Virus record (IMG/VR): IMGVR_UViG_3300032236_000548
Span: 1-64,000 of that record
Length of the DNA: 64,000 nucleotides
DNA from: a virus
Strand: one strand, 5' to 3'
In this document: in pieces, positions 8,829 to 43,501 of the stretch
Numbering within the stretch: position 1 is the first letter of the stretch
Layout: each line of letters starts with the position of its first letter
The notes under the pieces: model-generated
The model's database searches: none
What the model was told of the DNA's origin: nothing
Seen by the model: only the letters and a program-made list of their open reading frames with translations
Position numbers and translations under genes: made by a program

Positions 8829-9058
8829 GATGCGAAGATGAAAGTCATTTGCCCGTAGCAGAACAGAGCCTTGTGTTCCGACTGTACAAACGAGCAGAGA
8901 TACGTAGGCAAATTCCAGGTAGGTTAGCAGTTACGGAGGGCAAGCCCGACAAGATTGCTAACCTTCTAGAAGAAGCCGCAATGGAAATTCAAATGCTACG
9001 GGCAACCATAGCAGAATTAGGCAAACATACAAAAGGAAGAGATGGGTTTCAACCATGA
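8825..9058 (+). CDS. Hypothetical protein
   Basis: GGAGG RBS, ATGA coupling. Confidence 0.6.
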   Translation: MRCEDESHLPVAEQSLVFRLYKRAEIRRQIPGRLAVTEGKPDKIANLLEEAAMEIQMLRATIAELGKHTKGRDGFQP

Positions 9059-9513
9059 AGTGTTATCAATTAATTGGAGTACCAGGCGCTGGCAAATCTA
9101 CTTGGATTAAAAACCAAGTATGGGCTAAAGACATGCCTGTTATTTCTACAGATAATTTTGTAGAAGCTTATGCCAAAGAGCAAGGCAAGACTTACTCTGA
9201 AGTGTTTAAAGACTACATGCCTATCGCTGTTCGTTTGATGGCTAACCAAGCGTTGATTTGTCAAGCAAACAAACTGGACGTAATTTGGGATCAAACTAGT
9301 ACTACCATTGCAAGTCGTAAGCGTAAGTTTAACACCTTGCCAGACTACGAACATATTGCTGTTGTATTCCGCACACCAGATCGTGATGAGTTGGATGTTC
9401 GATTGTCCGGTCGGCCAGGTAAGCATATTCCAAAGAAAGTTATCGACGACATGATTGCAAACTGGGATGAGCCAACTGAAGACGAAGGCTTTAAGGAGAT
9501 TTGGTATGTTTAA
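9055..9513 (+). CDS. P-loop polynucleotide kinase-like (AAA_33)
   Basis: GVPGAGKSTW, ISTD, WDQT..R as in the T4 Pnk kinase domain. Confidence 0.8.
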   Translation: MKCYQLIGVPGAGKSTWIKNQVWAKDMPVISTDNFVEAYAKEQGKTYSEVFKDYMPIAVRLMANQALICQANKLDVIWDQTSTTIASRKRKFNTLPDYEHIAVVFRTPDRDELDVRLSGRPGKHIPKKVIDDMIANWDEPTEDEGFKEIWYV

Positions 9514-10090
9514 CGTAAGGGCCTTGTTGCCCTTACTACTAGTATTATCTTTCAATGCGTTTGGATTTGAAATCTATGCGCTAGGTACTAGTAATACTAA
9601 CTGCAAGAATGCAGGGCAAACATACACTAAAACTCTTAACGAGCTTTTTAAACAAGAAGGTATAGATGCTACAGTCATCAACGGCGGTGTCGACGGCGAT
9701 AGGCCAGTATGGATGATGAATCGCTTAACATCAAATGTTAACAACAATACAAAAATTGTAATATTTGAACCCGGCCCTAATGATCGTAATAAAACATCTA
9801 ATGTAGAAGAGTCTGAGAAGATACTAAGCTATTTGAAACAACATAATATGCCAACTGTATTTGTTTCAAATAGTATTATTTGGTCTAAAGAAGAAGCAGA
9901 CCAAATGGCCGCAAAGTATAATGCATACTACTACGGACATTGGGCCAAAAATATTCCCAAAGATACAACACACCGACAATTTGATATTGGCTCCGAGGGC
10001 GGCCACGCTACTTCGGAAGGTTGTAAACTTTGGGCTACTTACATGTTCCCATTACTTAAACAAGTAATGAAGGAACAGAATATTCATTAA
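9506..10090 (+). CDS. Exported SGNH/GDSL-like hydrolase
   Basis: Signal peptide; LGTSNT, NGGVDGD, EPGPND, GGHAT blocks. Confidence 0.6.
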   Translation: MFNVRALLPLLLVLSFNAFGFEIYALGTSNTNCKNAGQTYTKTLNELFKQEGIDATVINGGVDGDRPVWMMNRLTSNVNNNTKIVIFEPGPNDRNKTSNVEESEKILSYLKQHNMPTVFVSNSIIWSKEEADQMAAKYNAYYYGHWAKNIPKDTTHRQFDIGSEGGHATSEGCKLWATYMFPLLKQVMKEQNIH

Positions 10091-10503
10091 TCTATTAGCA
10101 ATCCACCGGGTAAGACTTTACTACCGTATTCTACTGTCTTACCTGGAATTGTTTTAGATATTAAGTTTCTAGGTTCATCTGGATCTTCGTTCCATTCAAT
10201 AATCATTGTCTGCGCCGTAGTAACTAAAAACTTCCATCTCTTGGTGTAAATTTCGGGATCTCTTTCTTTAAGAGAGTTACGATAATTTAAAAATGCTTGA
10301 GCATCGCGGAATGTTACTGTAAGCATTCTAATTAAACCGTCTTCACTAACTACGCTAGTTGGCTCAACTTCTGGGTGAAATAGATCAACGCGGCTGTTGC
10401 TTCGTACATCACGATAAGTATCTACTTCTTCGCCACCCGAATCGTGCCACCATGGTGTTTGGGTATCAGGGCGTATAAAAGTTATATATTGATAAAATGC
10501 CAT
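10087..10503 (-). CDS. Hypothetical protein
   Basis: GGAG RBS and TAAATA upstream on the minus strand. Confidence 0.65.
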   Translation of the reverse strand: MAFYQYITFIRPDTQTPWWHDSGGEEVDTYRDVRSNSRVDLFHPEVEPTSVVSEDGLIRMLTVTFRDAQAFLNYRNSLKERDPEIYTKRWKFLVTTAQTMIIEWNEDPDEPRNLISKTIPGKTVEYGSKVLPGGLLID

Positions 10504-10553
10504 TGCAAATCTCCGTTTTTTATATTTAGCCTTAGCTAAGGTGTAAATATGCT

Positions 10554-11063
10554 ATGATTAGAAAACATGCGTATTTTTCAGAGTTTGCTAGTATAATAGA
10601 CGAGTGCAAAATATTACTTAATACTGTACCTTTTCAAAACAATATCAATCAGTTAGCCCTGCAAGTAAGCGATCCTGCTATAGAAGATTGGTATGAATCT
10701 TGTGGAAGAGTACATAAAGTAGGGATTACACTATCTGAAGAAAATTACAAATATATTAACCCGCCCTTAAAAGGCAGTGCTATAGAAGCATGGTTAAACT
10801 CTTTAGAAGTTCCAGTGTTCAGGGCACGACTGATGCTAATACCAGGCAGAACATGCTACAGCGTACATAAAGACGCACAGCCCAGAATACATCTCCCTGT
10901 AGTTACAAACGACCAGAACTATATGTGCTTTCCTGATTTAGGAATTATGGAGTATTTGCCAGCTACCGGAGACAGCTATTGGGTTGATACTATACAGCGC
11001 CATACCTTTGTTAATTGTTCGGCTCAGGATCGCATACATCTAGTAGCTTGTGTTGATAATTAA
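10554..11063 (+). CDS. Aspartyl/asparaginyl beta-hydroxylase-like 2OG/cupin protein
   Basis: RARLM..YSVHKD..RIHLP..HTFVNC..DRIHLV. Confidence 0.75.
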   Translation: MIRKHAYFSEFASIIDECKILLNTVPFQNNINQLALQVSDPAIEDWYESCGRVHKVGITLSEENYKYINPPLKGSAIEAWLNSLEVPVFRARLMLIPGRTCYSVHKDAQPRIHLPVVTNDQNYMCFPDLGIMEYLPATGDSYWVDTIQRHTFVNCSAQDRIHLVACVDN

Positions 11064-11078
11064 ATGTAAGGAGACTGT

Positions 11079-11336
11079 ATGTTTAACATAAAAACTAAAT
11101 TTGAAGAACGAATTCCACGTTCTGTTGCTAAGGTAATTACTTGGCGTATTCTAGTAACAATTACTAACTTTTTCGGCGGCTGGATTGCCAGCGGTAATCC
11201 GTGGGTTGGCTTAGGCGTTGTTAGTTTTGCTCTAGTAGTTAATAGCATAATTTACTTCTTCCACGAACGTGCTTGGAATTCAAGTGACTGGGGTAAAGAA
11301 ATAACCGAAATTGAAGGTTCCCAAACAGCTAAATAA
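11079..11336 (+). CDS. DUF2061-like small membrane protein
   Basis: RSVAKVITWR..YFFHERAW. Confidence 0.75.
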   Translation: MFNIKTKFEERIPRSVAKVITWRILVTITNFFGGWIASGNPWVGLGVVSFALVVNSIIYFFHERAWNSSDWGKEITEIEGSQTAK

Positions 11337-11389
11337 ATGGTAGGAGTCATGACCTACATAAATTTAACGTTAAAAATTGGAGATTCCAA

Positions 11390-12334
11390 ATGAATAAAAA
11401 ACATGTAAAATGGGTACTAGCACACGAACCAATCGAATTGTTTATTCGTGCCGCTAAAGTATTTGCTGACGAAGTAAATGCTCGCGCACCAGAACAGTTA
11501 GAAATCGAAGTTATGACTATGAGCGAATACGCTGAAAAGTATAACAACGGTGTTGTAGTTGATAAGCATAGTTTAGTAGATTTACTAGATTCAGGCGCAA
11601 TTCAAATGAGCCAAACTTATACAATTACATTAGGTAAGATCAATAAAGACTTCTATGCTTTAGATTTACCATTCTTGTTCAAAGACCATGATCACGCAAG
11701 CCGTGTATTTGAAGGCGAAGTTGGCGCTAGTTTGTTAGACAGCTTACAAGAGTCAAAGAAAGTAAAAGGATTGGCATTCACATATAGTGGTGGATTCCGT
11801 ATTATCCCTGGTAACGAAACAGTTGCTAAGATTGAAGACTTACGCGGTATGAAGATGCGTACAAGTTTCAGCCCAGTAGCTATTGAAACATTCAAGACAC
11901 TAGGTGCTGATGTAGTTCCAATGGAACTAGAAGAATTATCAGACAATCTAGGTTCAGCTAATGTTGCAGTTGGCGAAAGCACATATCCACGTGTTTATGC
12001 TTTAGGACATGATAAAGTTTCTAAAGTTATCAATCACACAGAGCATAGCTTGTTCCTAACAAGTATCTTAATTGGTACTGACTTCTGGAATACACTAAGC
12101 CCAGAACTACAAACTGTAGTTGCTGAGAGTGCCAAGACAGCCGCACGTCATGAGCGTACACTAAGCATCGAAGACATTGCTCTAGTACAAGCTCGTGCAG
12201 AAGCAGATGGTATCGAAGTTGTTAAGATGAGTGCTGAAGAGCAAGCTCGTTTTGCAGAAGCTACTAAAGTTGTTTACTCTAAATTTGAAGATTACTTTAC
12301 TCCAGGTTTAGTAGAACAAATCAAATCAAAATAA
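11390..12334 (+). CDS. dctP: TRAP transporter substrate-binding protein (DctP-like), no signal peptide
   Basis: LDLPFLFKD, GGFR, DLRGMKMR, FKTLGA..PM, FWNTLSPELQ. Confidence 0.85.
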   Translation: MNKKHVKWVLAHEPIELFIRAAKVFADEVNARAPEQLEIEVMTMSEYAEKYNNGVVVDKHSLVDLLDSGAIQMSQTYTITLGKINKDFYALDLPFLFKDHDHASRVFEGEVGASLLDSLQESKKVKGLAFTYSGGFRIIPGNETVAKIEDLRGMKMRTSFSPVAIETFKTLGADVVPMELEELSDNLGSANVAVGESTYPRVYALGHDKVSKVINHTEHSLFLTSILIGTDFWNTLSPELQTVVAESAKTAARHERTLSIEDIALVQARAEADGIEVVKMSAEEQARFAEATKVVYSKFEDYFTPGLVEQIKSK

Positions 12335-12347
12335 TTTTTGATTAATT

Positions 12348-12376
12348 AAAAAAGGACCTTTGGGTCCTTTTTTTTT
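12348..12376 (+). terminator. Intrinsic terminator (possibly bidirectional)
   Basis: AAAAAAGGACC-TTTG-GGTCC-T9. Confidence 0.85.
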
Positions 12377-12422
12377 GGTGGTACACAGCATAGTGTAAAT
12401 ACACTTACATTTAAGGACCAGC

Positions 12423-13688
12423 ATGAACATCGGTGTACTATCCTCTGTATCTAGTTATCATCATTTGGCACAACTGTTTACAAACACTCCCGGAGTAGAC
12501 AACGTATTTCATTTTGGCGCAAATAAGGCTTTGTCCGAGACAGACATTTATCACCCACGCCCGATTGAAGTTCCAATGGAAGAACTTACGGACCATATGT
12601 CTAATAAAATTTCCTCATTACTTAAGACTGAAAAAATAGACTTCTTGCTAGCATCAGGAGTGCCTGTCGCATACAGTAGCGTTATACACAACAGTTTGAA
12701 AGAATCTAACATACCGTACTTCTTTCCATCAAAGGAACTAGTAAGATTGGAAGTAAACAAAAACGTCACAAAGGCTATGTTAAACAAAATTGGTATACCA
12801 AATAGTCCAGGAGAAATCTACGACGGAAGACAGTTATTTGCAAAATTTAAAAGTCTCCCAAGACCGTTTGTAGTAAAACTCAACTATGTATACCAGTACG
12901 GAAGACAAACATATATTGTCAACGATGAAAACTACGAAGAAGTATTTTTAGATTTATTCAGTGATAGGGCTGGGCTTGTACCACGGATAACAAATATTAA
13001 TAACGATACAAACATTACAGTTGAGAAATTTGTTAACCTTAAAAGAGAATACTCATATCATCTAGTAGCAAATGCTACTGGTTGGCAATACTTAGGGTCT
13101 GCCAGAGATTATAAAAAACTTGATGATGGAGATGTTGGATTCAATAGTGTAAGCATGGGTGCGTATAACGTAGACGACATAGATCCTCGAGTACACGAAT
13201 ACGCAGATAAAATTATCAATTATTTAAAAAACTACGGATATCCTTACAAAGGATTTATGTTTATAGGAATTGGCATAGACGAAGATGATGTGCCGATAGT
13301 TTTAGAAATAAACACAAGAAGTGGAGATCCCGAACTACAAGTAATTTTAGGATCTATAGAAAACAATCTTGCTGATTTATTTCTAGCGTGTAGCACTGAT
13401 GCTCGCATTCCAGATATTGTGCATAACAATAAAAAATCAGTAACTGTAAGATTAGTAAACACACATTATGATTGGAAGTGGCCTGCGTCCTTTTTACCTA
13501 AATTAAATCCGTGCCCTGATAATATCATCTGCGGATTAGAAGGAACAGAACGTTTTTATATTAAACATTCTGTAGTTACTACAAGCGATACTACACACGA
13601 GCAAGCAAGCAAGACCCTATACGACTACTTAGATAAGCAACAAGTAGGTCAGTATAGATATAGAAGAGATATAGGATTATTAAAATGA
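12423..13688 (+). CDS. ATP-grasp ligase, divergent PurD (GAR synthetase)-like
   Basis: LE.NK..K..IP, PFVVK, RDYKKL.DGD.G.N..MGAY, LEINTRSGDPE, YRRDIG. Confidence 0.75.
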   Translation: MNIGVLSSVSSYHHLAQLFTNTPGVDNVFHFGANKALSETDIYHPRPIEVPMEELTDHMSNKISSLLKTEKIDFLLASGVPVAYSSVIHNSLKESNIPYFFPSKELVRLEVNKNVTKAMLNKIGIPNSPGEIYDGRQLFAKFKSLPRPFVVKLNYVYQYGRQTYIVNDENYEEVFLDLFSDRAGLVPRITNINNDTNITVEKFVNLKREYSYHLVANATGWQYLGSARDYKKLDDGDVGFNSVSMGAYNVDDIDPRVHEYADKIINYLKNYGYPYKGFMFIGIGIDEDDVPIVLEINTRSGDPELQVILGSIENNLADLFLACSTDARIPDIVHNNKKSVTVRLVNTHYDWKWPASFLPKLNPCPDNIICGLEGTERFYIKHSVVTTSDTTHEQASKTLYDYLDKQQVGQYRYRRDIGLLK

Positions 13689-14941
13689 TTGACGATTTAG
13701 GATACTATACAGTAGGCACAGAAAAGTTCTACGAAAAAATTCCTGCAATGTTTAAGGCACAGCAATTAAAACAAGAGATGCACTGGAATTTTAATGATAA
13801 AGAATTTTCGGCAATGGATTGGACTAAAGAACCTACTCAAAGTTTAGATGAGTTTTATGCTATTCGAGCAAGACAAATTCGAGAAGAATACGATTATGTA
13901 TTGTTGTTTTGTAGTGGCGGTGCAGATAGTACTAATATGTTCTATGCATTTGTAAACAACGGTCTGCATGTCGACGAAGTAGTAGGTAGTGCTCCATTAG
14001 AAGGTCTTAGAGATTGGAAATCAGATGCAACTAATCAAGACGTAACAAACACCATCGACGAAACATTCCATACACAAATTCCTTGGCTTGAAAAAATTAG
14101 AGTAGAGTATCCACAAATTAAAGTAACCCTCCATGATTACTTTGAAGACATGCTAGACTATAAAGCCGATGACTGGTTAATAAAAGGTAACGATTGGATG
14201 CATCCTACTATGGCAGGTAGATACAACCTAGACAAGTATTTGCATTTAAAACGTATTGCCGAATCGGGAAAAAGAATTGCTATTGTACAAGGTATTGATA
14301 AACCAAAAATTGCTAGATACAAAAATCAATTTGTTATCTTATTTGCCGACAACGTGTATAATAACAAATACGACTCTGTGAAGCATCCTAATACAAACCC
14401 AGTATTCTTTTATCATAGCCCACAGCTTCCAGAGATGATTGTAAAACAAGCGCACGTCACTGCTAGGTTTTTAATGCGCCCAGAAAATATAGAAATATAC
14501 AATGCCATGGTGCAAAACGATGAACGTTTTTTAAAACAACCTTTATCTGAATTGATGAACCCTCCAAACTATAGTGTATACGAACGTGGCATTGTTCCAG
14601 TAATATACCCAGCATTGAAAAAGTATTCGTTTCAGGCAGGTAAGCCAGATCGTATGTTTTTAGGAAAACATGATGCGTGGTTTTATAACCACCACTCAGG
14701 AACTAAGATATGGGAAATGATGCAAAGTGATTTATACAACCTTATAAAATCACTAGATCCAAAGTTTTTAAACTTTCATAAATTTAGAGGGCTATTAGGT
14801 TTTAGAACTTGGCGTAAGTATTACATACTTGGCCCAGTATCAAACTTTATACCTCAGGGTGAAGTTATTTTATCAGATGCTAAAGTATTAGACGATACAG
14901 CAAAAGCAGATTTAATCAAACAGATGGATGCAGAAGGTTAA
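13685..14941 (+). CDS. PP-loop adenine-nucleotide alpha-hydrolase (asparagine-synthetase-like), long type
   Basis: SGGADS; DWT.EP..YA.RA.Q.R..YDY block shared with the next gene. Confidence 0.65.
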   Translation: MIDDLGYYTVGTEKFYEKIPAMFKAQQLKQEMHWNFNDKEFSAMDWTKEPTQSLDEFYAIRARQIREEYDYVLLFCSGGADSTNMFYAFVNNGLHVDEVVGSAPLEGLRDWKSDATNQDVTNTIDETFHTQIPWLEKIRVEYPQIKVTLHDYFEDMLDYKADDWLIKGNDWMHPTMAGRYNLDKYLHLKRIAESGKRIAIVQGIDKPKIARYKNQFVILFADNVYNNKYDSVKHPNTNPVFFYHSPQLPEMIVKQAHVTARFLMRPENIEIYNAMVQNDERFLKQPLSELMNPPNYSVYERGIVPVIYPALKKYSFQAGKPDRMFLGKHDAWFYNHHSGTKIWEMMQSDLYNLIKSLDPKFLNFHKFRGLLGFRTWRKYYILGPVSNFIPQGEVILSDAKVLDDTAKADLIKQMDAEG

Positions 14942-14943
14942 CA

Positions 14944-16161
14944 ATGTTTTTTGACGACGATTTAGAATTTACTAAACACGGATACTATCAGGTTGACGGA
15001 ATAAAAACTCTAAGCAAATTTGAAGCATTTAAATTTGCTGGTAATGATATGAGTAAAATTCAGTTTATATACAACGAAGATGTAATGTCACAGCAAGACT
15101 GGACTACAGAACCTTCGGAAGACATTTACGAACTATATGCTGAACGTGCTAGACAACTACGTCATAAGTACGACTACCTAGTATTGTTATACAGTGGAGG
15201 TATCGATAGTCATACAGTACTAAAATCTTTCCTGGACAACGATGTTCATTTAGATGAAATTTGTACCTTTACAAATGCAAAAATAGAAGCTAAGACTGGA
15301 AAGTTTAATCAAGAAGTTTTTAATGCCGCAGTACCATTTGTCAATACATTAGATCTTAATAAACTAAGAACTAAATTTAGATTGTTTGATATTAGCGATT
15401 TAATTATTAATCAATTCCAGGACGAGTTTCACTTTGAACATCATCATTTGTACAATCAAGGACCTGGTAACAATTGGAGTAGTGCAGTACGCTCGCATGT
15501 ATTAAAATCTAAAATACAAGATCATTTAACACTAACAGAGCAAGGAAAGAGTGTTTGCTATATCTGGGGTTTTGACAAACCATTCCTAATGTTTGAAAAG
15601 AACAAGTACTCTATACACTTTGTAGATAATGCTATCGATTTAAACATGCGTCAGTTTATCAATAGAAAAACACTTGTAAGTAAGTTTGCAAACTTCTACG
15701 ATGAGCCGTTTTATACTTGTAGAGAATTTCCTAAGATAGTAATTAAACAAGGACACCTATTGTTTAACTTGATTAAGACTATGGATAAAACTGACTTGAG
15801 ATTAAAATCACAAGATGAGATACCAACTACTGGTCCGTTCGTTATACATCATAGAGAAAAATACTATAGATTCTTGCCTAAGAAAATGGTAGACGGTACA
15901 ATCTATCCAAGAGCAAACTTGCTACAATTTGGAGATGACAAGACCAAAGGCAGTATTATTTTATCTGGAAAGGATAATTGGTTCAATCATTCTAATCACG
16001 ATAACCAGCGCCGATGGTATCAAAACTTAGATAATCTAATAAAACAAAATCAAGGGTTGTATCATTTTAAAAACAATAAAGTAATTGCTATTAACGGCAT
16101 ACGAAGTAAGCCTTACTTAATAGGCGAATACAATATGGTTAATTATGATAACCAAGAATAA
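14944..16161 (+). CDS. PP-loop protein, long type (paralog)
   Basis: YSGGIDS; G.DKP and KQ.H shared with 13685. Confidence 0.65.
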   Translation: MFFDDDLEFTKHGYYQVDGIKTLSKFEAFKFAGNDMSKIQFIYNEDVMSQQDWTTEPSEDIYELYAERARQLRHKYDYLVLLYSGGIDSHTVLKSFLDNDVHLDEICTFTNAKIEAKTGKFNQEVFNAAVPFVNTLDLNKLRTKFRLFDISDLIINQFQDEFHFEHHHLYNQGPGNNWSSAVRSHVLKSKIQDHLTLTEQGKSVCYIWGFDKPFLMFEKNKYSIHFVDNAIDLNMRQFINRKTLVSKFANFYDEPFYTCREFPKIVIKQGHLLFNLIKTMDKTDLRLKSQDEIPTTGPFVIHHREKYYRFLPKKMVDGTIYPRANLLQFGDDKTKGSIILSGKDNWFNHSNHDNQRRWYQNLDNLIKQNQGLYHFKNNKVIAINGIRSKPYLIGEYNMVNYDNQE

Positions 16162-16972
16162 CTGGATACAGTCTACTACATTAAATCTGCGTGACAGCAA
16201 TCCTATTGCTGATTTTATATTGACTATAAATTTATATCCATTTAAAAAAATAGACTTCGATTCTGCTGTTGAAATAACTGTTAAAGAAATAGGTCATAAT
16301 TATTCAAATTTATATTTGGCGCTTAGTGGAGGGTATGACTCCGAATTCTTATTGCGATCATTTCATAAATTTAATGTAGATGTAACACCTATTATTGTTT
16401 GCTACAACAATGATGCAGAAACAAAATATGCATTTGAAGTTTGCGATGAGTTGAATATAACGCCTGTAAAGATTGTGCTAACTGACGATCAGTTTTTAAC
16501 ATATTTGAATGAAAAAATATCTAAGAAATTTAACGGCTCAGGATATAATTTTACCCATGTGCTGTTTGCGGCAGATTATTCTAGACAGCATAACGGCACA
16601 CTGTTGACTGGGAATCATCTAATCGGTGATAGCACTGATATAATAACCGATGACAATTTTGCCAGCTTAAACGAATGGGATTTTTACTTAGATCATACCC
16701 ACCCAGATTTGAATCATATTGATGTATTCTTATACACACTAGAATTAGCTTGTTCTATGCTTCCTGCTGATAACGGATTGACCTGGCAAGAATATAAACA
16801 CAAATTATTTAATGTGAAACAGAGAGATAAAGCAAGGCCCACATATTCTACTGAGGTAATTTCGCAAATCAAATCAATACTTGGTGCGAAAGAAGATTAC
16901 AAACACGTACAAGTGCATGAATGGACCCGTGCAGAATTTAATAAAACCTTTAAAGAGTTTCTTACAACATGA
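16145..16972 (+). CDS. PP-loop protein, short type
   Basis: LYLALSGGYDSE. Confidence 0.6.
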   Translation: MITKNNWIQSTTLNLRDSNPIADFILTINLYPFKKIDFDSAVEITVKEIGHNYSNLYLALSGGYDSEFLLRSFHKFNVDVTPIIVCYNNDAETKYAFEVCDELNITPVKIVLTDDQFLTYLNEKISKKFNGSGYNFTHVLFAADYSRQHNGTLLTGNHLIGDSTDIITDDNFASLNEWDFYLDHTHPDLNHIDVFLYTLELACSMLPADNGLTWQEYKHKLFNVKQRDKARPTYSTEVISQIKSILGAKEDYKHVQVHEWTRAEFNKTFKEFLTT

Positions 16973-17871
16973 TACCAAGACTTAAAAATAGTTTTATACG
17001 GCCAGTTGGTACTGGGGAATCTTGGCGACTAGAGATCGATCCTCTTCCTACACGGTTTGAAAATTATTTTAAAGAGTCGTGTAATGCGGCAGTGGAGATA
17101 AATGATCTCAAAGAAGGACCTCTCCATCTAATGTATAGCGGAGGTATCGATAGTGAGTATGCGTTAAATATATTTTTACACATGGGCATAGATATTACTC
17201 CGGTGATTGTTAGACTACTTCCTGATTACAATAACCACGATATCGATTATGCTTTTAAATTTTGTCAACAGCACAATTTAGAACCTATAGTTATAGATAT
17301 AAACTTTGATGAATTTGTTACATCTGGAAAAATGACAGATATTAATCAACTTGTAAAATCTAGCGTCATAGGTAGAGCAACGACATGTTATGCTATGGAT
17401 TTCGTCGACGGCAGTATTATATGCTGTGAAGGTGACCCACATACGATTAAATACCCCGGAACAGAAGATTGGTATTTTATGGCGGCACAAGATGACTACA
17501 CTTTTGAAAATTACATGAATGCAAAAGGTATAGACGGCACTTCCTTCTTTAACGGTTATACTCCCGAAATGGTTTCTGCGTTTCTAGTAGATCCTATAAT
17601 GCGAGATTTAGCTGATAATAAGATTCCAGGAAAACTTGGAAATAAGTCTAGCAAAAATATAATTTATACAAGAGATAGTAATTTTGAAATGGAAACTAGA
17701 CCCAAGTATAACGGATACGAAAAAATACTAAACAGTGAAATTATTAAGCACCCTGCTTTTGCTAAGGTATACTTTCACCACAAAGATTATAAACAATTCG
17801 AAAAAGAACGTCTTGACATCCACGGCCAATTTTTTGTAAAATACTACGATCTCATAAAGGATTTAATATGA
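16969..17871 (+). CDS. PP-loop protein, short type
   Basis: LMYSGGIDSEY..NNHDI.YA..PGKLG..SSK..R.KY.GYE. Confidence 0.65.
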   Translation: MIPRLKNSFIRPVGTGESWRLEIDPLPTRFENYFKESCNAAVEINDLKEGPLHLMYSGGIDSEYALNIFLHMGIDITPVIVRLLPDYNNHDIDYAFKFCQQHNLEPIVIDINFDEFVTSGKMTDINQLVKSSVIGRATTCYAMDFVDGSIICCEGDPHTIKYPGTEDWYFMAAQDDYTFENYMNAKGIDGTSFFNGYTPEMVSAFLVDPIMRDLADNKIPGKLGNKSSKNIIYTRDSNFEMETRPKYNGYEKILNSEIIKHPAFAKVYFHHKDYKQFEKERLDIHGQFFVKYYDLIKDLI

Positions 17872-18242
17872 AAGAAAAATATTGGGGATACCATTTGATG
17901 TTGGATTGCGGCGGATGTAACATCAACGCAATGACCAATAAAGATGTTGTTAAAGAATTTGTAAAAGTACTAGTAGAAGCTATCGATATGGTAGCTGTAG
18001 GCGAACCTTGGATCGAACGTACTGCTATAGGTATGCCCGATAAAGAAGGATTTAGCTTGTATCAACTGATAGTTACAAGTAATATCTCTGCACATTTTGT
18101 AGATGAACCCAAACAAATTTATCTCGATGTATTCAGTTGCAAAGAGTTTGATGAAGCTGTGGTAAAAGATGTAGTTAACACTTATTTCAAACCAACAAAA
18201 ATTAACACTAGATTTATAACTAGAGACGCATCCGATGTTTAA
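17868..18242 (+). CDS. speD: S-adenosylmethionine decarboxylase proenzyme-like
   Basis: GYHLMLD, LIVTSNISAH (pyruvoyl Ser), YLDVFSCK. Confidence 0.75.
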   Translation: MKEKYWGYHLMLDCGGCNINAMTNKDVVKEFVKVLVEAIDMVAVGEPWIERTAIGMPDKEGFSLYQLIVTSNISAHFVDEPKQIYLDVFSCKEFDEAVVKDVVNTYFKPTKINTRFITRDASDV

Positions 18243-19122
18243 TAATCCGCCAAATATCTACGCACACGTTTCTGCTTTAAAGAACGGTCACTTCGTAACT
18301 GAAGATCAACTCATCCTTAACAACAATGGAGAATACTCTATAAAAAGTAGAGAGTGTCCGCATCGTGGTTATCTTATTCAGGAACCCGGTGACGTGGTAA
18401 AAACTGTAGTCTGCAAACTACATGGGTTTGCATGGGATAGTGAAGGTAAACCTTTAGATAATGCCGCTGAGCCTTGCCGTAATCATTTTTACAAACTACA
18501 TCACCACGGTCCTTTAGAACTAGGCAAAACAGGTTTGCTATTTCAAAATTTTAAAGAACTACCCGACTCCGAATGGGTACAAGAACTAAGCAAGATAACC
18601 GATCTCGAATTTGATAGAACAGTTGTCGGTGAAAGCAAGGGAAGCTGGCTATGGATGATGGAGCAACTAACTGATGTAATTCATCTTAGACAAAACGGAA
18701 TACACCCTAGACAAAGTTTAGAAACACCGTTAGATGGGGATCACATAGAGCAATTCCTAGAAGAAGGATGCTCTGTACAAAAGAATACGAACATCAACGG
18801 AACTAAAGGATTCTGGGTGTTTATATATCCCGGATACGGAGTTGAGTTTGAGCCAGGTAAGTTGCTCATTACCCGATTAGTGCCAAACGATATCAATGAA
18901 GAATTTGGATTCCGTTGGGAATTACAAACTTACTATTCTCCATGGGTAGATAAAAATGAAAGAGAAGAATGGGAAAAGAGTATTGAAGTATACTACGAAG
19001 ATATCCATGCTATTGAAAAAATCAAACGACCGTATTTTCCATTAAAGCGAATGGTTAACCAGTATGAAGAACAAATGCATCACTGGGGGCAGTGGTACAA
19101 GGATAATCTTAAAAAAGATTAA
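18235..19122 (+). CDS. Rieske non-heme iron oxygenase alpha-subunit-like
   Basis: CPHRG..CKLHG [2Fe-2S] ligands; E..D..H..H and ED mononuclear-Fe residues. Confidence 0.75.
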   Translation: MFNNPPNIYAHVSALKNGHFVTEDQLILNNNGEYSIKSRECPHRGYLIQEPGDVVKTVVCKLHGFAWDSEGKPLDNAAEPCRNHFYKLHHHGPLELGKTGLLFQNFKELPDSEWVQELSKITDLEFDRTVVGESKGSWLWMMEQLTDVIHLRQNGIHPRQSLETPLDGDHIEQFLEEGCSVQKNTNINGTKGFWVFIYPGYGVEFEPGKLLITRLVPNDINEEFGFRWELQTYYSPWVDKNEREEWEKSIEVYYEDIHAIEKIKRPYFPLKRMVNQYEEQMHHWGQWYKDNLKKD

Positions 19123-19125
19123 TTA

Positions 19126-19995
19126 ATGATTCCTTTATCAAAAAATAACTATATACGGACACGCGGGTTTGGGGATAATTTTAAAGTTGAAATAGATCCT
19201 GTGATATCTGCCGACAACTATTATAATGAAAGTGTACTAGCGGCAGAAGAAATATACAGTCTTAAAGAAGGCCAAATGTATGTTATGTACAGTGGCGGAA
19301 TCGATAGTGAATACGCCCTTAGTGTATTCTTAGAATTAGGCATGGCAATAACTCCTGTTATTATAAGACTAGGCAATTACAACGAGCACGATATAAAGTA
19401 TGCTATGGATTTTTGCCATGCAAAAAACATAACTCCTAAGATTATCAACTTTGACTTTGACGAGTTTGTTAAGAGTGAAAAAATATTAGATGTGGCTTTA
19501 GAATCTCGCTCAATGCTATACCATCGTCCAGCTACCGCCTATGTTGCAAGTCAACTTGATGGAACTATCTTGTTAGGTGACGGCGAGCCGTATATTCGGT
19601 TAAACAAAAATACAAACACTTGGAACTTAGAAATAGACGAACACGATTTTGCAGTGTGCAACTATCTTGTTGCTAAAGGTATTCCATGTGTTCCTCACTT
19701 TAATAGATACCGCCCAGGCATGATGTCGTCTTATATGTTAGATCCTAGAATGCAAGAACTTGCAGAGCATAAGCATCCAGGCAAATTAGGATCCAACTCT
19801 AGCAAAGCATACATGTATAATCGTACTAGTCCTTTTAAATTAGAATCACGACAAAAGTACACAGGATACGAAATTATAGAAGAAAGCGAAATCTTTAAAC
19901 ATCCAGTGTTTGCTCAAATGGAAGACCAATGCAAGAAGTACAATGGATTAGTAGCTATTGACTACCACACATTTATAAAAGATTATATACAATGA
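19126..19995 (+). CDS. PP-loop protein, short type (close paralog of 16969)
   Basis: MYSGGIDSEYAL; PGKLGSNSSK; RQKYTGYE. Confidence 0.65.
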   Translation: MIPLSKNNYIRTRGFGDNFKVEIDPVISADNYYNESVLAAEEIYSLKEGQMYVMYSGGIDSEYALSVFLELGMAITPVIIRLGNYNEHDIKYAMDFCHAKNITPKIINFDFDEFVKSEKILDVALESRSMLYHRPATAYVASQLDGTILLGDGEPYIRLNKNTNTWNLEIDEHDFAVCNYLVAKGIPCVPHFNRYRPGMMSSYMLDPRMQELAEHKHPGKLGSNSSKAYMYNRTSPFKLESRQKYTGYEIIEESEIFKHPVFAQMEDQCKKYNGLVAIDYHTFIKDYIQ

Positions 19996-20531
19996 GAGTT
20001 ATAACTTGGCGTCCAGGAACTGAGCCTGCATATGATAAAATCTTTGAAGAGCTAAGGGCCGAGCATTATGCTGATCATAGTCACAGATTGTGGAAGAACT
20101 ATTCTAAAGAAGCGTTCAAGGAAGTAGCTGTACTATCGATTTACTTTGATGAAGATAATGTTCCAGAAGTATGCTCGAGTGCGGTTCAACGTAGTTGTTG
20201 GCCGCAGGGTGCTTACCGTATACACAACCGTGTATGGAAATGCAACAACAAGAAACAGTTCTTACGCAAAGTTAGTCCTAGCATGGGTTATACTGCTCGT
20301 AGCCAAATTGAATGGCTCAAAGCAAATACAGACTTCAAACTGTATTTTATCAGTCGACAAACAGACAATTGGAATGACTGGATGATAGAACACTTCAAAG
20401 AATATGGTATAGAGTTCAAAACAGATAACTACATGTATCTAACATGTCCCAACGAATGCGATGATACTTGCTGGCAACGTATCATATACTCGGGCGATGA
20501 ATCGTTGTTAGAACAATGGAAGCGTAGATGA
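19992..20531 (+). CDS. Hypothetical protein (possibly GNAT-like)
   Basis: Coupled ORF; YRIHNRVW, YFISRQ; the fold is a guess. Confidence 0.5.
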   Translation: MRVITWRPGTEPAYDKIFEELRAEHYADHSHRLWKNYSKEAFKEVAVLSIYFDEDNVPEVCSSAVQRSCWPQGAYRIHNRVWKCNNKKQFLRKVSPSMGYTARSQIEWLKANTDFKLYFISRQTDNWNDWMIEHFKEYGIEFKTDNYMYLTCPNECDDTCWQRIIYSGDESLLEQWKRR

Positions 20532-21310
20532 AAAATATTTTCAATGTTAATAGATTAAAGAACCTGCAGATCCTAACAATATCTGCATACTTGATTACGG
20601 CGGTATCTTTACCTATTATACAATTTAGTTGGAGCATGTTTGCCTTAACTATTTTAATGTACTTTCTTATATTTGGATTTGGAGTAAGTCTTACATTCCA
20701 TAGAAGCATTACTCATAGAGCAGTAGATATGCATCCTGTACTAGAACTACTGGGTAAGTTCTTTGCCAGTGTTGGCGGAACAGGAAGTCCTATTAGCTGG
20801 GTTTTAGTACACAAGGCTCACCACAAGCATTCGGACACCGATCGAGATCCGCATAGTGCTAGAGATGTATTAAAATATGTAATTGGCAAATACCCAAAAG
20901 TTAGTACACAAGGCATGCGCCGATTAGCTCAAAGTAAATTTAACAAGTTCATACATAAGCATTACTATCTAGTAATCTTTACGTACGGTGCAATTTGGGC
21001 AATGTTAGGAATTGATTACTTTTGCTACGGGTTTATCTACCCAATGGTTTTGAACATGGTTGCTGGCCATCTTGTAAACTGGTACACACATTCTGAGTAT
21101 TTTTCAAATTATCGATTGCACGATACTAAAGACACTAGCCAAAATAATTTATTAATTGGATTAGTTACTTGGGGAGAAGGATTTCATAACACCCATCACA
21201 AGTATCCAGGTAGAGCTAATTTTGGTGTAAAGTTTTGGGAAGTCGATGCTACTTATGCACTTACCAAAATACTGGCAAAGCTCAAACTAGTTAAGATACG
21301 GTTGACTTAA
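20528..21310 (+). CDS. Membrane fatty-acid (delta-9-type) desaturase
   Basis: His boxes HRSITH, HKAHH, HNTHH; DPHS; GEGFHN; TM helices. Confidence 0.9.
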   Translation: MKNIFNVNRLKNLQILTISAYLITAVSLPIIQFSWSMFALTILMYFLIFGFGVSLTFHRSITHRAVDMHPVLELLGKFFASVGGTGSPISWVLVHKAHHKHSDTDRDPHSARDVLKYVIGKYPKVSTQGMRRLAQSKFNKFIHKHYYLVIFTYGAIWAMLGIDYFCYGFIYPMVLNMVAGHLVNWYTHSEYFSNYRLHDTKDTSQNNLLIGLVTWGEGFHNTHHKYPGRANFGVKFWEVDATYALTKILAKLKLVKIRLT

Positions 21311-21330
21311 AACCTAAAAGACTATATAAT
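21302..21330 (+). promoter_or_regulatory. Sigma70 promoter
   Basis: TTGACT-17-TATAAT, 6 nt before the tRNA-like RNA. Confidence 0.8.
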
Positions 21331-21336
21331 TAAAAT

Positions 21337-21436
21337 GTGGACGTGAGTGGAACTTGGTATACCTCCTCCCTTCGGGGAGGGTACGGGGCTTGGTCTTAGA
21401 CTGCCTTTGTAGGTTCGAATCCTACCGTCCGCACCA
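21337..21436 (+). ncRNA. tRNA-like RNA (Leu-like body) with UUCG tetraloop in place of the anticodon loop
   Basis: GTGGACG/CGTCCGC-A-CCA, D-loop GGAACTTGGTATAC, CTCCC-TTCG-GGGAG, long extra arm, GTAGG-TTCGAAT-CCTAC. Confidence 0.8.
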
Positions 21437-21461: not shown

Positions 21462-21785
21462 ATGAAAAAGGCATTTGCAGTACTGTTATCAGTTTTATCA
21501 TTTAACACGATGGCGTATTACGAAGACCCACATCAGCAATTCGATATGACTCGCAACGCTACAAACAAAGTCGAGATCACATTTCGAACTACAAACAATA
21601 TCAACCAGACTTGCCAAGCAGAAAGTCGTGCTCGCGGCTTAGGCGGATTTGGTTATAGTGTGGAAGCATGTAGCTTTTGGAATTACGACAAAACTCAATG
21701 TACCATTATCACTAGCCCTACAGCAAACTTCCATACAGTTGGACACGAAGTCCGTCATTGCTTACAAGGTAATTTCCATAAATGA
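21462..21785 (+). CDS. Exported protein with HEXXH motif
   Basis: Signal peptide MKKAFAVLL..; GHEVRHC; start corrected to 21462. Confidence 0.65.
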   Translation: MKKAFAVLLSVLSFNTMAYYEDPHQQFDMTRNATNKVEITFRTTNNINQTCQAESRARGLGGFGYSVEACSFWNYDKTQCTIITSPTANFHTVGHEVRHCLQGNFHK

Positions 21786-22180
21786 CCAAACTTGATTTAG
21801 TTGAGGATATCCGTAACTCTCCAGAAATAATGGCAAAGCTACGACAAGAGAGTCGCTACTATGCCCAAAACTTATATTGTGCTTGGTGCAATATGCAGTG
21901 GTGTAAAAGAGACACTTGGCCTATTCTTGCAGAGCAATACTGGAGTGCTAGTTGGCGCAGTGCCGGCGGTATTGTAGCAGACTTACGCAACCAAGGCGAA
22001 GACTACATGGACTACTACTGCTCGGGAATTAAAGGTGGTACGAGTTACGACCCAAACGATGACGATGAGCTTTTTGAAGAACTAAAGTATGTTTCGGAAG
22101 GCGAAGTTACAGAAGAGATTCTCAATGACCTTGACAAACTAGGATGGTTTCCAGTACCATACAAAGACGACTTTGTATAA
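21782..22180 (+). CDS. Hypothetical phage protein
   Basis: SWRSAGGIVADLR..DYYCSG. Confidence 0.7.
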   Translation: MTKLDLVEDIRNSPEIMAKLRQESRYYAQNLYCAWCNMQWCKRDTWPILAEQYWSASWRSAGGIVADLRNQGEDYMDYYCSGIKGGTSYDPNDDDELFEELKYVSEGEVTEEILNDLDKLGWFPVPYKDDFV

Positions 22181-34417: not shown

Positions 34418-35677
34418 ATGATGGATAAAAAAGATACTATATGTGCAATACCGTGGATGCACTTAAATTTCGAACCCAACGGTAAGGTAGTTCCTTGTTG
34501 TTTAACCAGTCACCACAATTATTTTGCAGGTGACTTAAACACACAAACTATTGATGAGATTTGGAATAGCGACAACATGAAATCGTTGCGTAAGCAAATG
34601 ATTAATGGCGAGCGTCCAAAGATTTGTGATACTTGTTGGAACAAAGAAGATGTCACAGGAGTAAGTGGACGGTTTTATCAAAACAGAGACTTTCCAGATG
34701 TTCTTAAAAAGATCCCTGACATTACATTAGAAGACGGTACTTGTACTGAGATGGAGCTCAAGTATTGGGACTTCCGTTTTAGTAACTTGTGTAATTATAA
34801 ATGTCGCAGTTGCGGTCCACGCTATAGTTCTGCATGGGTGCCTGATGCTAAAAAGCTCGGCTACACCGACCAAGAAAAAGTATGGAATATCGAAGCAGTT
34901 GAGAACAAAGCAAACGTCGACTTCCTAGAGGATCAGATAGACACTGTTCGTAGAATTTATTTTGCCGGTGGCGAACCCTTACTCATGGACGAGCACTGGC
35001 AGATACTTGACAAACTAGTAGAACGTAAACGTTTTGATGTTAAGTTAAGTTACAATACTAATGTTAGCACACTAACCTATGGTAAGAAGAATGTAGTTGA
35101 CTATTGGAAACAATGGCAATTAGGTAAACTAGAAGTATGGCCTAGTATTGACGAAATTGGTGAACGTGCTGAATTGATACGCAGTGGTACAGTCTGGAGT
35201 AAAGTAGAAGAAAACTTGAAAGAACTTGCCAAGTACGATAATATCATCTTGCGTCCTGGTATGACTATCGGTGCATGGAACGTTCGTAGACTTCCTACCA
35301 TTATCACATACTTGACCGACTTAGGAGTAGTTCGCCGCCATCCTGAAATTTATCAGTATGTTAACTATAATAATTTCTTTATAAACTTACTAGATCATCC
35401 TAGACATTACCATGTGGGTATTTTACCAGATGGCTACAAAAATGAAACTATCAAAGAGCTAGAAGCATTTGCCGAAGAATACAATAAAAAGTATAATACA
35501 GATATAAGTTCAGTCTTCACACAAATAATACACGAGCTTAAACAGCCTCATGATCCAGAAGCGGCTAAACGATTCTTACATACTACAAAACGTGTAGACG
35601 ATATCAGAGATGAGAAATTCTTTGATGTTGTTCCTGAACTTGCTATCATAAGAGATATGTACCCAGGAGTGTACTAA
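34418..35677 (+). CDS. Radical SAM protein with N-terminal SPASM/twitch domain
   Basis: C..PW..G.V.PCC..C..C, CNYKCRSC, FAGGEP. Confidence 0.9.
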   Translation: MMDKKDTICAIPWMHLNFEPNGKVVPCCLTSHHNYFAGDLNTQTIDEIWNSDNMKSLRKQMINGERPKICDTCWNKEDVTGVSGRFYQNRDFPDVLKKIPDITLEDGTCTEMELKYWDFRFSNLCNYKCRSCGPRYSSAWVPDAKKLGYTDQEKVWNIEAVENKANVDFLEDQIDTVRRIYFAGGEPLLMDEHWQILDKLVERKRFDVKLSYNTNVSTLTYGKKNVVDYWKQWQLGKLEVWPSIDEIGERAELIRSGTVWSKVEENLKELAKYDNIILRPGMTIGAWNVRRLPTIITYLTDLGVVRRHPEIYQYVNYNNFFINLLDHPRHYHVGILPDGYKNETIKELEAFAEEYNKKYNTDISSVFTQIIHELKQPHDPEAAKRFLHTTKRVDDIRDEKFFDVVPELAIIRDMYPGVY

Positions 35678-35678
35678 T

Positions 35679-36611
35679 ATGAGTACCATTGCTGTATTTG
35701 AAATGATGGATAAGAATCGAACTCCATATGCATTAACGTTCAACTTATACAACTCATCACTGGCCAAACGCTGGCAAGCAATGGTAGAACAAAATGTACA
35801 AGCTCAGCACGAGATTTACGCAAGTTTTATTAACCTTACTTACGACAGGCTTCCTGAAGTATTAGAAGAGCTTAATGAAATGGTTGCTATAATTAATCGC
35901 AACTATGATAAAAAGTTACCCGAGTTTATTAGCACAGAAATTTTAGATCAGCAAATCTTAAATGACTTGCATGAAGAGTACGAAGTGTACGGCGGTAGAA
36001 TCGATCAATTCGAATCTAAAAAATTACACGCAAGTTTTTTAAGATTAAACGAATTGATTCATGCTTGTGAAGAAATGACTGCAACCAAGGATAAGAAGTT
36101 TATCCCCATGAGTGCGCTAATCGACTATTACCCACAGGGCATACACGAGCCTTTGAAGGATCAGGATAAAGTATACCTAACTACAGACTTCAATTGGGGC
36201 AAGTTGTATCTAGGGTATAACACCTTAGGAAAAGATTGGTTAGAAGTGCAACGTCATAACGACTTAGATGTTATACTGAGAAATCAAGTTCGTAAGCAAG
36301 AAAGATTTGCCGCCGAATGTTGGTTAAACTTTACACAAGACGATACGTGTAAGTGGAATGCAACTCAGTTTGAAAAGTGGTATGATAAGTTATCTCCCGA
36401 GATACAAGCACAAGTTCCCGTAGACGACATGTCTGCGCTGGCATTAGGCAGATATGAAATTGGAACACTAGAGATTACAGAAAATTTCTTAGAATACCAC
36501 AATAACAAATCTGATTGGTTAGTTCCAGAACATCCGATAAAAGCAAAGTGGAACAAAGAAGTGTTTTCCACATTTAAAATAGTCAAGAGCATTAAGTTCA
36601 TAAATGTCTAA
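35679..36611 (+). CDS. Hypothetical protein in radical SAM cluster
   Basis: LNDLHEEY..LNELIH..LYLGYNTLGK. Confidence 0.65.
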   Translation: MSTIAVFEMMDKNRTPYALTFNLYNSSLAKRWQAMVEQNVQAQHEIYASFINLTYDRLPEVLEELNEMVAIINRNYDKKLPEFISTEILDQQILNDLHEEYEVYGGRIDQFESKKLHASFLRLNELIHACEEMTATKDKKFIPMSALIDYYPQGIHEPLKDQDKVYLTTDFNWGKLYLGYNTLGKDWLEVQRHNDLDVILRNQVRKQERFAAECWLNFTQDDTCKWNATQFEKWYDKLSPEIQAQVPVDDMSALALGRYEIGTLEITENFLEYHNNKSDWLVPEHPIKAKWNKEVFSTFKIVKSIKFINV

Positions 36612-43460: not shown

Positions 43461-43501
43461 GGTATTTTATCCTCCAAGATATTTACCTCGATAAATACAC
43501 T

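Follow-up and report, generated by a model that had tools for sequence, protein, structure and literature searches.

A virus-borne island of predicted AsnB-fold PP-loop enzymes recurs as two cassettes that may form amides

The DNA considered here, which we call the window, is the first 64 kb of the 104,655-bp IMG/VR virus record IMGVR_UViG_3300032236_000548, and the element of interest in it is an island of 13 genes at positions 10554 to 21310 containing five PP-loop enzymes, an ATP-grasp ligase, a solute-binding protein and several oxidative enzymes. CheckV puts the completeness of the record at 28%, which implies a genome of several hundred kb; the source is a fragment of an uncultured giant phage. 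The island has a GC content of 34-36%, lower than the roughly 41% of its flanks. An earlier sequence-only reading of this DNA, made from the letters and the open reading frames (ORFs) with no database searches, had placed 13 ORFs here, all of which are confirmed with their coordinates, and had proposed that they form a pathway for an amide-linked, oxidized or desaturated product. The objective is to clarify what these proteins are, which of them belong together, and what they might make.

All 13 genes are on the plus strand. Leading the island are a small cupin-type 2-oxoglutarate (2OG)/Fe(II) hydroxylase that is Asp/Asn beta-hydroxylase-like, of the LpxO/OlsC kind (10554..11063; assigned from a Pfam match below cut-off and an intact triad), a small membrane protein of family DUF2061 (11079..11336; Pfam E = 5.9e-13), and a solute-binding protein of the DctP family of tripartite ATP-independent periplasmic (TRAP) transporters, without a signal peptide and predicted to be cytoplasmic (11390..12334). 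After these come ten genes, from 12423 to 21310, packed with intergenic spacings of -17 to +3 nt; over the whole cluster the gaps are -17 to +88 nt. The ten begin with a divergent PurD-like ATP-grasp ligase (12423..13688; Pfam GARS_A, E = 7.6e-15), followed by two long PP-loop enzymes, which we call ppA1 (13685..14941) and ppA2 (14944..16161), and by two short ones, ppB1 (16145..16972) and ppB2 (16969..17871). A SpeD-like pyruvoyl decarboxylase (17868..18242), apparently an accessory, comes next in the operon, overlapping its neighbors at stop and start codons. The block then continues with a miniature Rieske non-haem iron oxygenase (18235..19122; Pfam Rieske, E = 7e-8), a third short PP-loop enzyme, ppB3 (19126..19995), a 179-aa protein with a probable GNAT (Gcn5-related N-acetyltransferase) fold (19992..20531), and a short-form delta-9-type membrane fatty-acid desaturase of 260 aa (20528..21310). 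The arrangement described by the sequence-only reading, ten packed or overlapping genes preceded by hydroxylase, DUF2061 and DctP, is thus borne out, and Pfam agrees with its identification of the ATP-grasp, AdoMet decarboxylase, Rieske, desaturase, DctP and DUF2061 proteins.

Late-type promoter-like TAAATA motifs, also noted in that reading, are found on the plus strand ahead of both parts of the island. One (10544..10549) lies inside GTGTAAATA and ends 4 nt ahead of the hydroxylase ATG; the other (12396..12401) is 22 nt upstream of the ATP-grasp start codon. An intrinsic terminator on the plus strand occupies the interval between the DctP and ATP-grasp genes (12348..12376), with an 11-bp stem followed by a T-run and a folding energy of -14.1 kcal/mol. 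Because the terminator comes after DctP and is followed by the second TAAATA, the region reads as two putative transcription units, hydroxylase-DUF2061-DctP and the ten-gene block. The 9-mer GTGTAAATA, present at 10541-10549 and 12393-12401, is not enriched by itself in the window (2 copies versus 1.5 expected), and the T4 consensus TATAAATA has a single occurrence there. The placement of TAAATA is, nonetheless, not random relative to genes, as 7 of its 14 plus-strand copies have an ORF start no more than 35 nt beyond their end, where 0.54 such copies would be expected. The motifs suggest that the island is probably expressed late. At two sites, 10544-10554 and 43492-43502, the motif ends only 4-5 nt before the annotated ATG, and a T4-type late transcript would begin at or after the start codon; leaderless mRNAs or erroneous start-codon calls are possible explanations for these two sites.

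The five PP-loop paralogs range from 275 to 418 aa. The SGGxDS motif reported for all of them is confirmed in each, in gene order as SGGADS, SGGIDS, SGGYDS, SGGIDS, and SGGIDS. By pairwise BLAST, ppA1 and ppA2 are 26% identical (E = 3e-29) and ppB2 and ppB3 are 44% identical, while ppB1 is a third and more distant branch, matching ppB2 and ppB3 at E = 5e-11 through its N-terminal part only. The two subfamilies of the sequence-only reading are therefore recognizable as the long ppA and short ppB proteins, with the correction that ppB1 stands apart. Likeness between ppA and ppB is confined to the surroundings of the PP-loop, both by BLAST and by hhalign (E = 6e-5). The PP-loop is invariant in the three family alignments made for ppA and ppB, and the ppB3 alignment adds an invariant YSGGxDS and a block R242-K244-G247-E249. 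No cysteine is invariant in the ppA or ppB family alignments.

Established sequence families give little help in placing these proteins. None of the five has a Pfam or PHROG match above threshold; Asn_synthase (PF00733), with a cut-off of 21 bits, is matched best in the record by ppB1, at 15.2 bits. Searching the Protein Data Bank (PDB) by sequence brought up no useful match for ppA1, ppB2 or the ppA profile, and the ppB profile reaches NAD synthetase (NadE) at E = 3.8e-8 along with other PP-loop enzymes. Structure prediction, which the sequence-only reading had suggested as a check, was carried out for two of the five paralogs. The AlphaFold models built on family alignments are confident, with predicted local distance difference test (pLDDT) scores of 88 for ppA1 and 91 for ppB2. 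Both models have the Rossmann-like alpha/beta fold of adenine nucleotide alpha-hydrolases and match many PP-loop structures, and for both the best structural match is the synthetase domain of asparagine synthetase B (AsnB). In the VIA-align comparison, ppB2 obtains 14.9, 14.7, 12.2, 12.1, and 10.8 with the group of AsnB-class enzymes versus 10.1 or less with the rest, and Foldseek agrees on the same enzymes. QueC, at structural Z scores of 5.2 and 8.0, ranks lower than the AsnB class. The structural matches begin at about residue 75-120 of AsnB, from which it follows that the glutaminase domain is missing, and the PP-loop proteins have no Pfam GATase match. The absence of a glutaminase domain claimed from the sequence alone is thus upheld by the protein lengths, the start of the structural match, the lack of a GATase hit and the lack of an invariant cysteine. 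The models support a description of the PP-loop paralogs as AsnB-fold adenylating enzymes without a glutaminase domain.

It is useful to set these proteins beside the enzymes that they resemble. The synthetase domain is the C-terminal one in AsnB and in human asparagine synthetase, ASNS (1ct9, 9b6c), and the phage proteins lack the N-terminal nucleophile (Ntn) glutaminase domain that precedes it there; they also differ in forming virus-only families, in occurring as multiple paralogs, and in scoring no higher than 15.2 bits to Asn_synthase. Beta-lactam synthetase (1jgt), carbapenam synthetase (1q15), and the hydroxyamidotransferase TsnB9 (7ylz) are relatives of AsnB that are not run by glutamine hydrolysis, but they keep a full-length inactive N-terminal domain and belong to bacterial antibiotic gene clusters, whereas the phage proteins are shorter, at 275-418 aa, and have other partners. 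Two different assignments were considered and rejected. A sulfurtransferase of the TtuA, MnmA, or LarE type is ruled out by the lack of a conserved cysteine. Canonical QueC (PF06508) is also rejected, with scores of 18.3-19 bits against a cut-off of 22 that cover only profile positions 4-69, and again with no conserved cysteine; the missing cysteine argues against both sulfur-transfer chemistry and the QueC zinc site.

The ppA and ppB families look to be found only in viruses, judging from the collections searched. The ppA1 family comprises 197 metagenomic clusters at 90% identity and 437 confirmed IMG/VR matches, the ppB alignment finds 194 IMG/VR matches, and the nearest ESM Atlas clusters are 93-100% viral. 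No ppA relative was found in a pattern scan, of limited sensitivity, over 185,579 prokaryote species genomes taken one per species, and neither megablast nor tblastn found a relative of ppA or ppB in 50,697 deposited phage records. Metagenomic assemblies are likewise the sole source of the tight families to which the short Rieske protein and the 260-aa desaturase belong. We found no published description of the island in the literature.

The main point of interest is which genes of the island travel together. To that end 158 loci from contigs of related uncultured phages were annotated with hidden Markov models built from the island's families, and immediate neighbors were counted among distinct proteins; other counts refer to 79 ppB-anchored and 78 ppA-anchored loci. 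Two groups of genes emerge. In the first, TctC, a solute-binding protein absent from the present record, has ppA on one flank or the other in 50 of 74 cases, which is far over background because ppA makes up just 4% of the genes in the loci. DctP takes part in the same neighborhood, with TctC in 26 flanking positions among 36 DctP genes, ppA upstream of 10 of the 36, and DUF2061 directly upstream of 7 of the 36 distinct genes. An ATP-grasp gene adjoins 8 distinct ppA genes. On the ppA tree, ppA1 belongs to a clade of genes located after the ATP-grasp gene (100% support) and ppA2 to a clade adjoining TctC (6 of 7 members, 100% support), and the type of neighbor is clustered on that tree, requiring 36 changes versus a shuffled mean of 58.8. 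In the second group, the Rieske gene has ppB directly downstream on the same strand in 24 of 32 cases, with 4 more on the opposite strand; of 22 cases of the 179-aa protein, 11 have ppB upstream and 15 have a desaturase downstream; and a desaturase, often in several copies and up to nine, is within 10 kb of ppB in 65 of the 79 ppB-anchored loci. A relative of ppB1 in locus L020, 43% identical, also follows a Rieske gene. By gene order, the Rieske, GNAT-like and desaturase genes appear to have their conserved partner in ppB3.

These adjacencies are retained across phages whose proteins are just 25-45% identical. The island is two recurrent cassettes and not one fixed ten-gene pathway. Cassette 1 is a binder with ppA, joined in one clade by the ATP-grasp gene, and is represented here by DctP, the ATP-grasp ligase, ppA1 and ppA2. 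The core of cassette 2 is Rieske, ppB, the 179-aa protein and desaturase. The SpeD and ATP-grasp genes are occasional add-ons, present in 5 and 6, respectively, of the 79 ppB-anchored loci, with SpeD in none of the 78 ppA-anchored ones. Hydroxylases (24/79), radical SAM (S-adenosylmethionine) enzymes (a 507-aa form in 23/79) and GNATs are also variable. The conserved co-occurrence on which the sequence-only reading depended accordingly stands in part: the genes exceed chance neighborhood (24/32, 50/74, 65/79), but they do so as two cassettes and not as a ten-gene pathway.

Among the partners in cassette 1, DctP is the most securely identified, with a Pfam match of E = 9.5e-50 (170 bits) and 137.7 bits to NF037995 against a cut-off of 50. 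An N-terminal hydrophobic segment is absent from all 30 distinct phage DctP homologs, in which the mature domain begins right after the initiator, and from this a cytoplasmic location is expected. By comparison, 51 of 57 TctC proteins have a classical Sec signal peptide, as bacterial TctC does. DctP Arg157 is conserved; the equivalent residue has a role in carboxylate binding (PMC11668362). The closest solved relatives of DctP include 4N8Y and 4X8R, which are uronate binders (PMC11668362). Both phage binders have a clear family match to the periplasmic binders of TRAP (DctP) and tripartite tricarboxylate transporter (TTT; TctC/Bug) systems, and the carboxylate-binding arginine is conserved, but they are paired with an adenylating enzyme instead of a transporter, and the 104.6-kb record, about 28% of the genome, contains no DctM or other membrane subunit.

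The ATP-grasp protein aligns with TIGR00877 (PurD) over residues 5-349 at 111.5 bits, below the equivalog cut-off of 288, and with PDB PurD chains at E = 4e-22; the ATP-grasp residues K113, K152, E201, E295, N297, and R299 are invariant in 11 homologs. PurD itself is phosphoribosylamine-glycine ligase, and the phage enzyme differs in being always beside ppA in the island and not with other purine genes. Given this context and the score under cut-off, its substrates may differ from those of PurD. The hydroxylase scores 20.4 bits to Asp_Arg_Hydrox (PF05118), under the cut-off of 22.6, with the HxD...H triad H105, D107, H150 and also R160 invariant in 31 homologs.

In the rest of the block, the SpeD-like protein matches AdoMet_dc (PF02675) at E = 3.6e-16 (59.9 bits versus a cut-off of 25) and PHROG 3125 at E = 1e-26, with no PDB relative at E = 0.01. 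T70-S71, H76, and C91 are invariant in 5 homologs, and by comparison with the Thermotoga maritima enzyme we take S71, H76, and C91 to be the catalytic residues, the serine becoming the pyruvoyl group. The NCBIfam score is 36.1 against an equivalog cut-off of 75.65, so the substrate may differ from SAM. In the Rieske protein, the CxH...CxxH ligands C41, H43, C60, and H63 together with D147, H150, H157, and D256 are invariant in 20 homologs; the catalytic domain is covered by no Pfam family, and the mononuclear 2-His-1-carboxylate iron site appears intact by pattern only. The desaturase matches FA_desaturase (PF00487) at E = 5.4e-15 (56.3 bits versus 29.7) and the NCBIfam DesA family at E = 1e-28, where 100.7 bits stands against an equivalog cut-off of 400. 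Its three His boxes (HxxxxH, HxxHH, HxxHH) are invariant in 120 phage desaturase paralogs, its orthologue group is 70-89% identical across many contigs, and by homology it is classed as delta-9-type. In some related loci, for example L162, L112, L127, and L018, there are 6-9 delta-9-type desaturase paralogs within 20 kb, an unusually large number for a viral membrane enzyme. As judged from conserved residues, the catalytic sites of the Rieske, desaturase, hydroxylase, ATP-grasp and SpeD proteins are intact.

The 179-aa protein was simply an unknown in the sequence-only reading. It belongs to a conserved family of about 180 aa with 229 representative clusters. Neither it nor ten distant relatives have a Pfam match, and neither of two profiles of the family has a PDB sequence match. 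An iterated profile does align with a neighboring phage GNAT family (hhalign probability 95.9%, E = 5.6e-9), 12 of whose 22 members match Acetyltransf_1, making a GNAT fold probable for this protein.

Several features around the island deserve mention in their own right. Upstream, an ORF at 9055-9513 is P-loop kinase-like (AAA_33, E = 2.7e-19), with a minus-strand ORF at 10087-10503 intervening. Downstream, 27 nt past the desaturase stop, ARAGORN finds a 100-nt tRNA look-alike, tRNA-Arg (tcg), at 21337-21436, with its own near-consensus sigma-70-type promoter, TTGACT-17-TATAAT, at 21302-21330. Relatives of it are at the island edge in 11 distinct related loci, 8 of which place it no more than 600 nt from a gene for a desaturase, a hydroxylase or a radical SAM enzyme; given the adjoining protein with its probable GNAT fold, an aminoacyl-donor role is conceivable. 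Next, the ORF at 21782-22180 encodes a 132-aa member of a conserved family of about 184 aa with no Pfam match, found in 30 ppA-anchored loci and 23 of the 79 ppB-anchored loci with identity up to 76%. A second enzyme cluster, at 34418-37533, includes two radical SAM ORFs and the unannotated ORFs that separate them; the first (34418-35677) has a SPASM domain N-terminal to its radical SAM domain, and the second is at 36604-37533. Finally, tandem ORFs of about 105 aa are found next to ppA and TctC in related phages, as in L030 and L040 (16 copies in 8 loci). They are possibly peptide substrates or helper proteins, and this window has none of them.

What the cassettes might do can be sketched from the chemistry of the enzymes they resemble. 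AsnB, beta-lactam synthetase, carbapenam synthetase, and TsnB9 form amides or lactams by adenylation of a carboxylate followed by capture. By analogy, a phage PP-loop enzyme would adenylate a carboxylate to acyl-AMP and pyrophosphate, and the activated carbonyl would be captured by ammonia, by a substrate amine or intramolecularly, giving an amide or a lactam. The substrate of cassette 1, counted here with its hydroxylase and DUF2061 (that is, hydroxylase, DUF2061, DctP, PurD-like ligase, ppA1, and ppA2), would be a small carboxylic acid, perhaps an amino, sugar or dicarboxylic acid. The signal-less DctP would keep this acid in the cytoplasm, exported TctC being the binder in related phages, and the acid would be joined to amines by the ATP-grasp ligase through an acyl-phosphate and by ppA through an acyl-adenylate. 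Cassette 2 (ppB1, ppB2, SpeD, Rieske, ppB3, GNAT-like protein, and desaturase) would work on a membrane-associated, lipid-like acyl compound: the GNAT-like protein would N-acylate an amine, the delta-9-type desaturase and the Rieske oxygenase would tailor the chain, ppB would cap the free carboxylate as an amide, and SpeD, when present, would supply the amine by decarboxylation. Since the record has neither an acyl carrier protein (ACP) nor a ferredoxin, carriers and electrons would come from the host; electron donors, acyl donors and any transporter would be host-derived. We give about even weight to the reading that the island is a recurrent and so far virus-only pair of cassettes of ATP-dependent amide-forming enzymes. 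A narrower proposal, speculative enough that we lean well away from it, is that the product of cassette 2, made late in infection, is an unsaturated aminolipid that is amide-capped and specific to the virus, with the cytoplasmic, transporter-less DctP as a substrate-holding subunit for the cassette 1 ligases.

One known counterpart for such a product is the ornithine-lipid or aminolipid pathway, with its N-acyltransferase OlsB and hydroxylases OlsC, OlsD, and OlsE. The kinds of enzyme in common would be a probable GNAT-fold acyltransferase, a putative 2OG hydroxylase of LpxO/OlsC type and a membrane di-iron enzyme, which in that pathway act on a lipid with an amide linkage. On the other hand, no OlsB or OlsA homology was detected in the phage island, where the GNAT assignment is only probable, and we know of no AsnB-type enzyme or Rieske oxygenase in the ornithine-lipid pathway.

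A number of findings weigh against amide formation by two cassettes. The likeness to AsnB is structural only, as hhalign to Escherichia coli AsnB aligns just 15-16 residues at the PP-loop; the AsnB catalytic residues can therefore not be mapped, and we describe the paralogs as AsnB-synthetase-like and not as members of the Pfam family. Gene overlap is usual in phage genomes and is no proof of a single-function operon. The 104.6-kb record contains no ACP, 2Fe-2S ferredoxin, transporter membrane subunit or aminopropyl transferase. With its narrow profile, the 179-aa family reaches the same GNAT family at just 24.5%, for which reason we go no further than calling the fold probable. Paired diversification of ppA and TctC paralogs is flat, at 20 of 35 concordant versus 17.5 expected, and the overall correlation of 0.66 between the two is confounded by shared ancestry. 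The variability of SpeD, of the ATP-grasp gene and of paralog number, along with the up to nine desaturases per locus, would fit a hypervariable island of independent genes.

The last of these points leads to the strongest rival, which we judge unlikely though not negligible, namely that the island is just that, a site where unrelated auxiliary genes accumulate. The desaturase would then serve membrane fluidity, SpeD polyamines, the PurD-like ligase purines and DctP nutrient binding, and the PP-loop paralogs would have separate jobs. Desaturases and SpeD are known as stand-alone auxiliary genes of aquatic phages. Gene composition and order differ widely among loci, the low counts of SpeD and ATP-grasp genes in ppB-anchored loci (5/79 and 6/79) and the flat ppA-TctC test are as expected from independent genes, a terminator divides the region, and GC falls to 34% from about 41% in the flanks. 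Counting against independent accumulation are the persistence of adjacencies at 25-45% identity (Rieske with ppB in 24/32, TctC with ppA in 50/74, the 179-aa protein with the desaturase in 15/22), the clustering of neighbors on the ppA tree (36 changes versus 58.8 shuffled), and families that are virus-only and not recent imports from a host. Peptide or protein modification, of the kind seen with ribosomally synthesized and post-translationally modified peptides (RiPPs) or directed at the virion, appears rather improbable. It would have the PP-loop enzymes introduce isopeptide or lactam bonds or convert Asp/Glu side chains to amides, while the ATP-grasp ligase, the hydroxylase and, in relatives, the radical SAM enzyme further modify proteins made late. 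There is precedent in lasso-peptide cyclases, which are AsnB homologs, in the ATP-grasp ligases of graspetides, and in the peptide substrates of Asp beta-hydroxylases, and such a role would suit the late-type promoter motifs, the 507-aa radical SAM enzyme near ppB in 23 of 79 loci, and the ORFs of about 105 aa that some relatives have in tandem alongside ppA. The cluster of the window, however, with gaps of only -17 to +88 nt, has no space for a precursor gene, in agreement with the sequence-only reading, which saw no obvious precursor peptide; its 13 proteins include no PqqD leader-recognition domain, transglutaminase-type domain or leader protease, so that the context of a lasso-peptide cyclase is also missing. 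With neither a precursor gene nor a leader-handling domain, a RiPP is disfavored, the ATP-grasp ligase is PurD-like and not graspetide-like, and solute-binding proteins and a membrane lipid desaturase are ill-suited to a peptide substrate.

Two further explanations have to be weighed against amide-forming cassettes. QueC and TilS adenylate base or tRNA substrates, and on that model the PP-loop enzymes might adenylate a base, a carboxylated base such as 7-carboxy-7-deazaguanine, or a tRNA position, with several paralogs giving several modifications. In its favor are a weak QueC-like match of ppB3 (E = 0.0017, 19 bits), the absence of canonical QueC from the 104.6-kb record, and the tRNA look-alike 27 nt downstream of the desaturase, which recurs at the island edge in relatives. 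We nevertheless consider nucleic-acid modification to have quite a slim chance, as no conserved cysteine is available to form the zinc site of QueC, the enzymes are accompanied by solute binders and a membrane desaturase, and the tRNA look-alike is under its own sigma-70-type promoter; the proteins are acidic to neutral (median isoelectric point 6.5 for ppA and 5.9 for ppB), which, taken with the AsnB-class fold, argues against nucleic-acid substrates. The specific product suggested by the sequence-only reading, an acyl-polyamine, fares poorest, and we hold it to be very improbable. SpeD would provide decarboxylated SAM for making polyamines and the ligases would attach an oxidized or desaturated acyl chain, and indeed the SpeD gene overlaps its operon neighbors, the protein keeps its Ser, His, and Cys, and ligases and a desaturase are present. 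Against it, SpeD is in 5/79 ppB-anchored and 0/78 ppA-anchored loci, it scores below the NCBIfam equivalog cut-off (36.1 versus 75.65), and the record has no spermidine-synthase-type aminopropyl transferase and no ACP; the rarity of SpeD and the missing transferase make the acyl-polyamine a weak guess.

The PP-loop proteins add two families that number hundreds of members among large, uncultured aquatic phages and have no Pfam, PHROG or literature description. Should the product of the cassettes turn out to be an amide-linked acid or lipid peculiar to phages, it would represent a new form of viral metabolic reprogramming, and the enzymes a new source of amide-forming biocatalysts; the signal-less DctP would be a case of a solute-binding protein redeployed within the cell. 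Were the narrower proposal of an amide-capped aminolipid and a substrate-holding DctP also true, there would be a phage-encoded class of lipid or metabolite and a new role for solute-binding proteins, both without a cellular counterpart. The cassettes are small, at 4-5 genes, and could be expressed heterologously, which makes these ideas directly testable.

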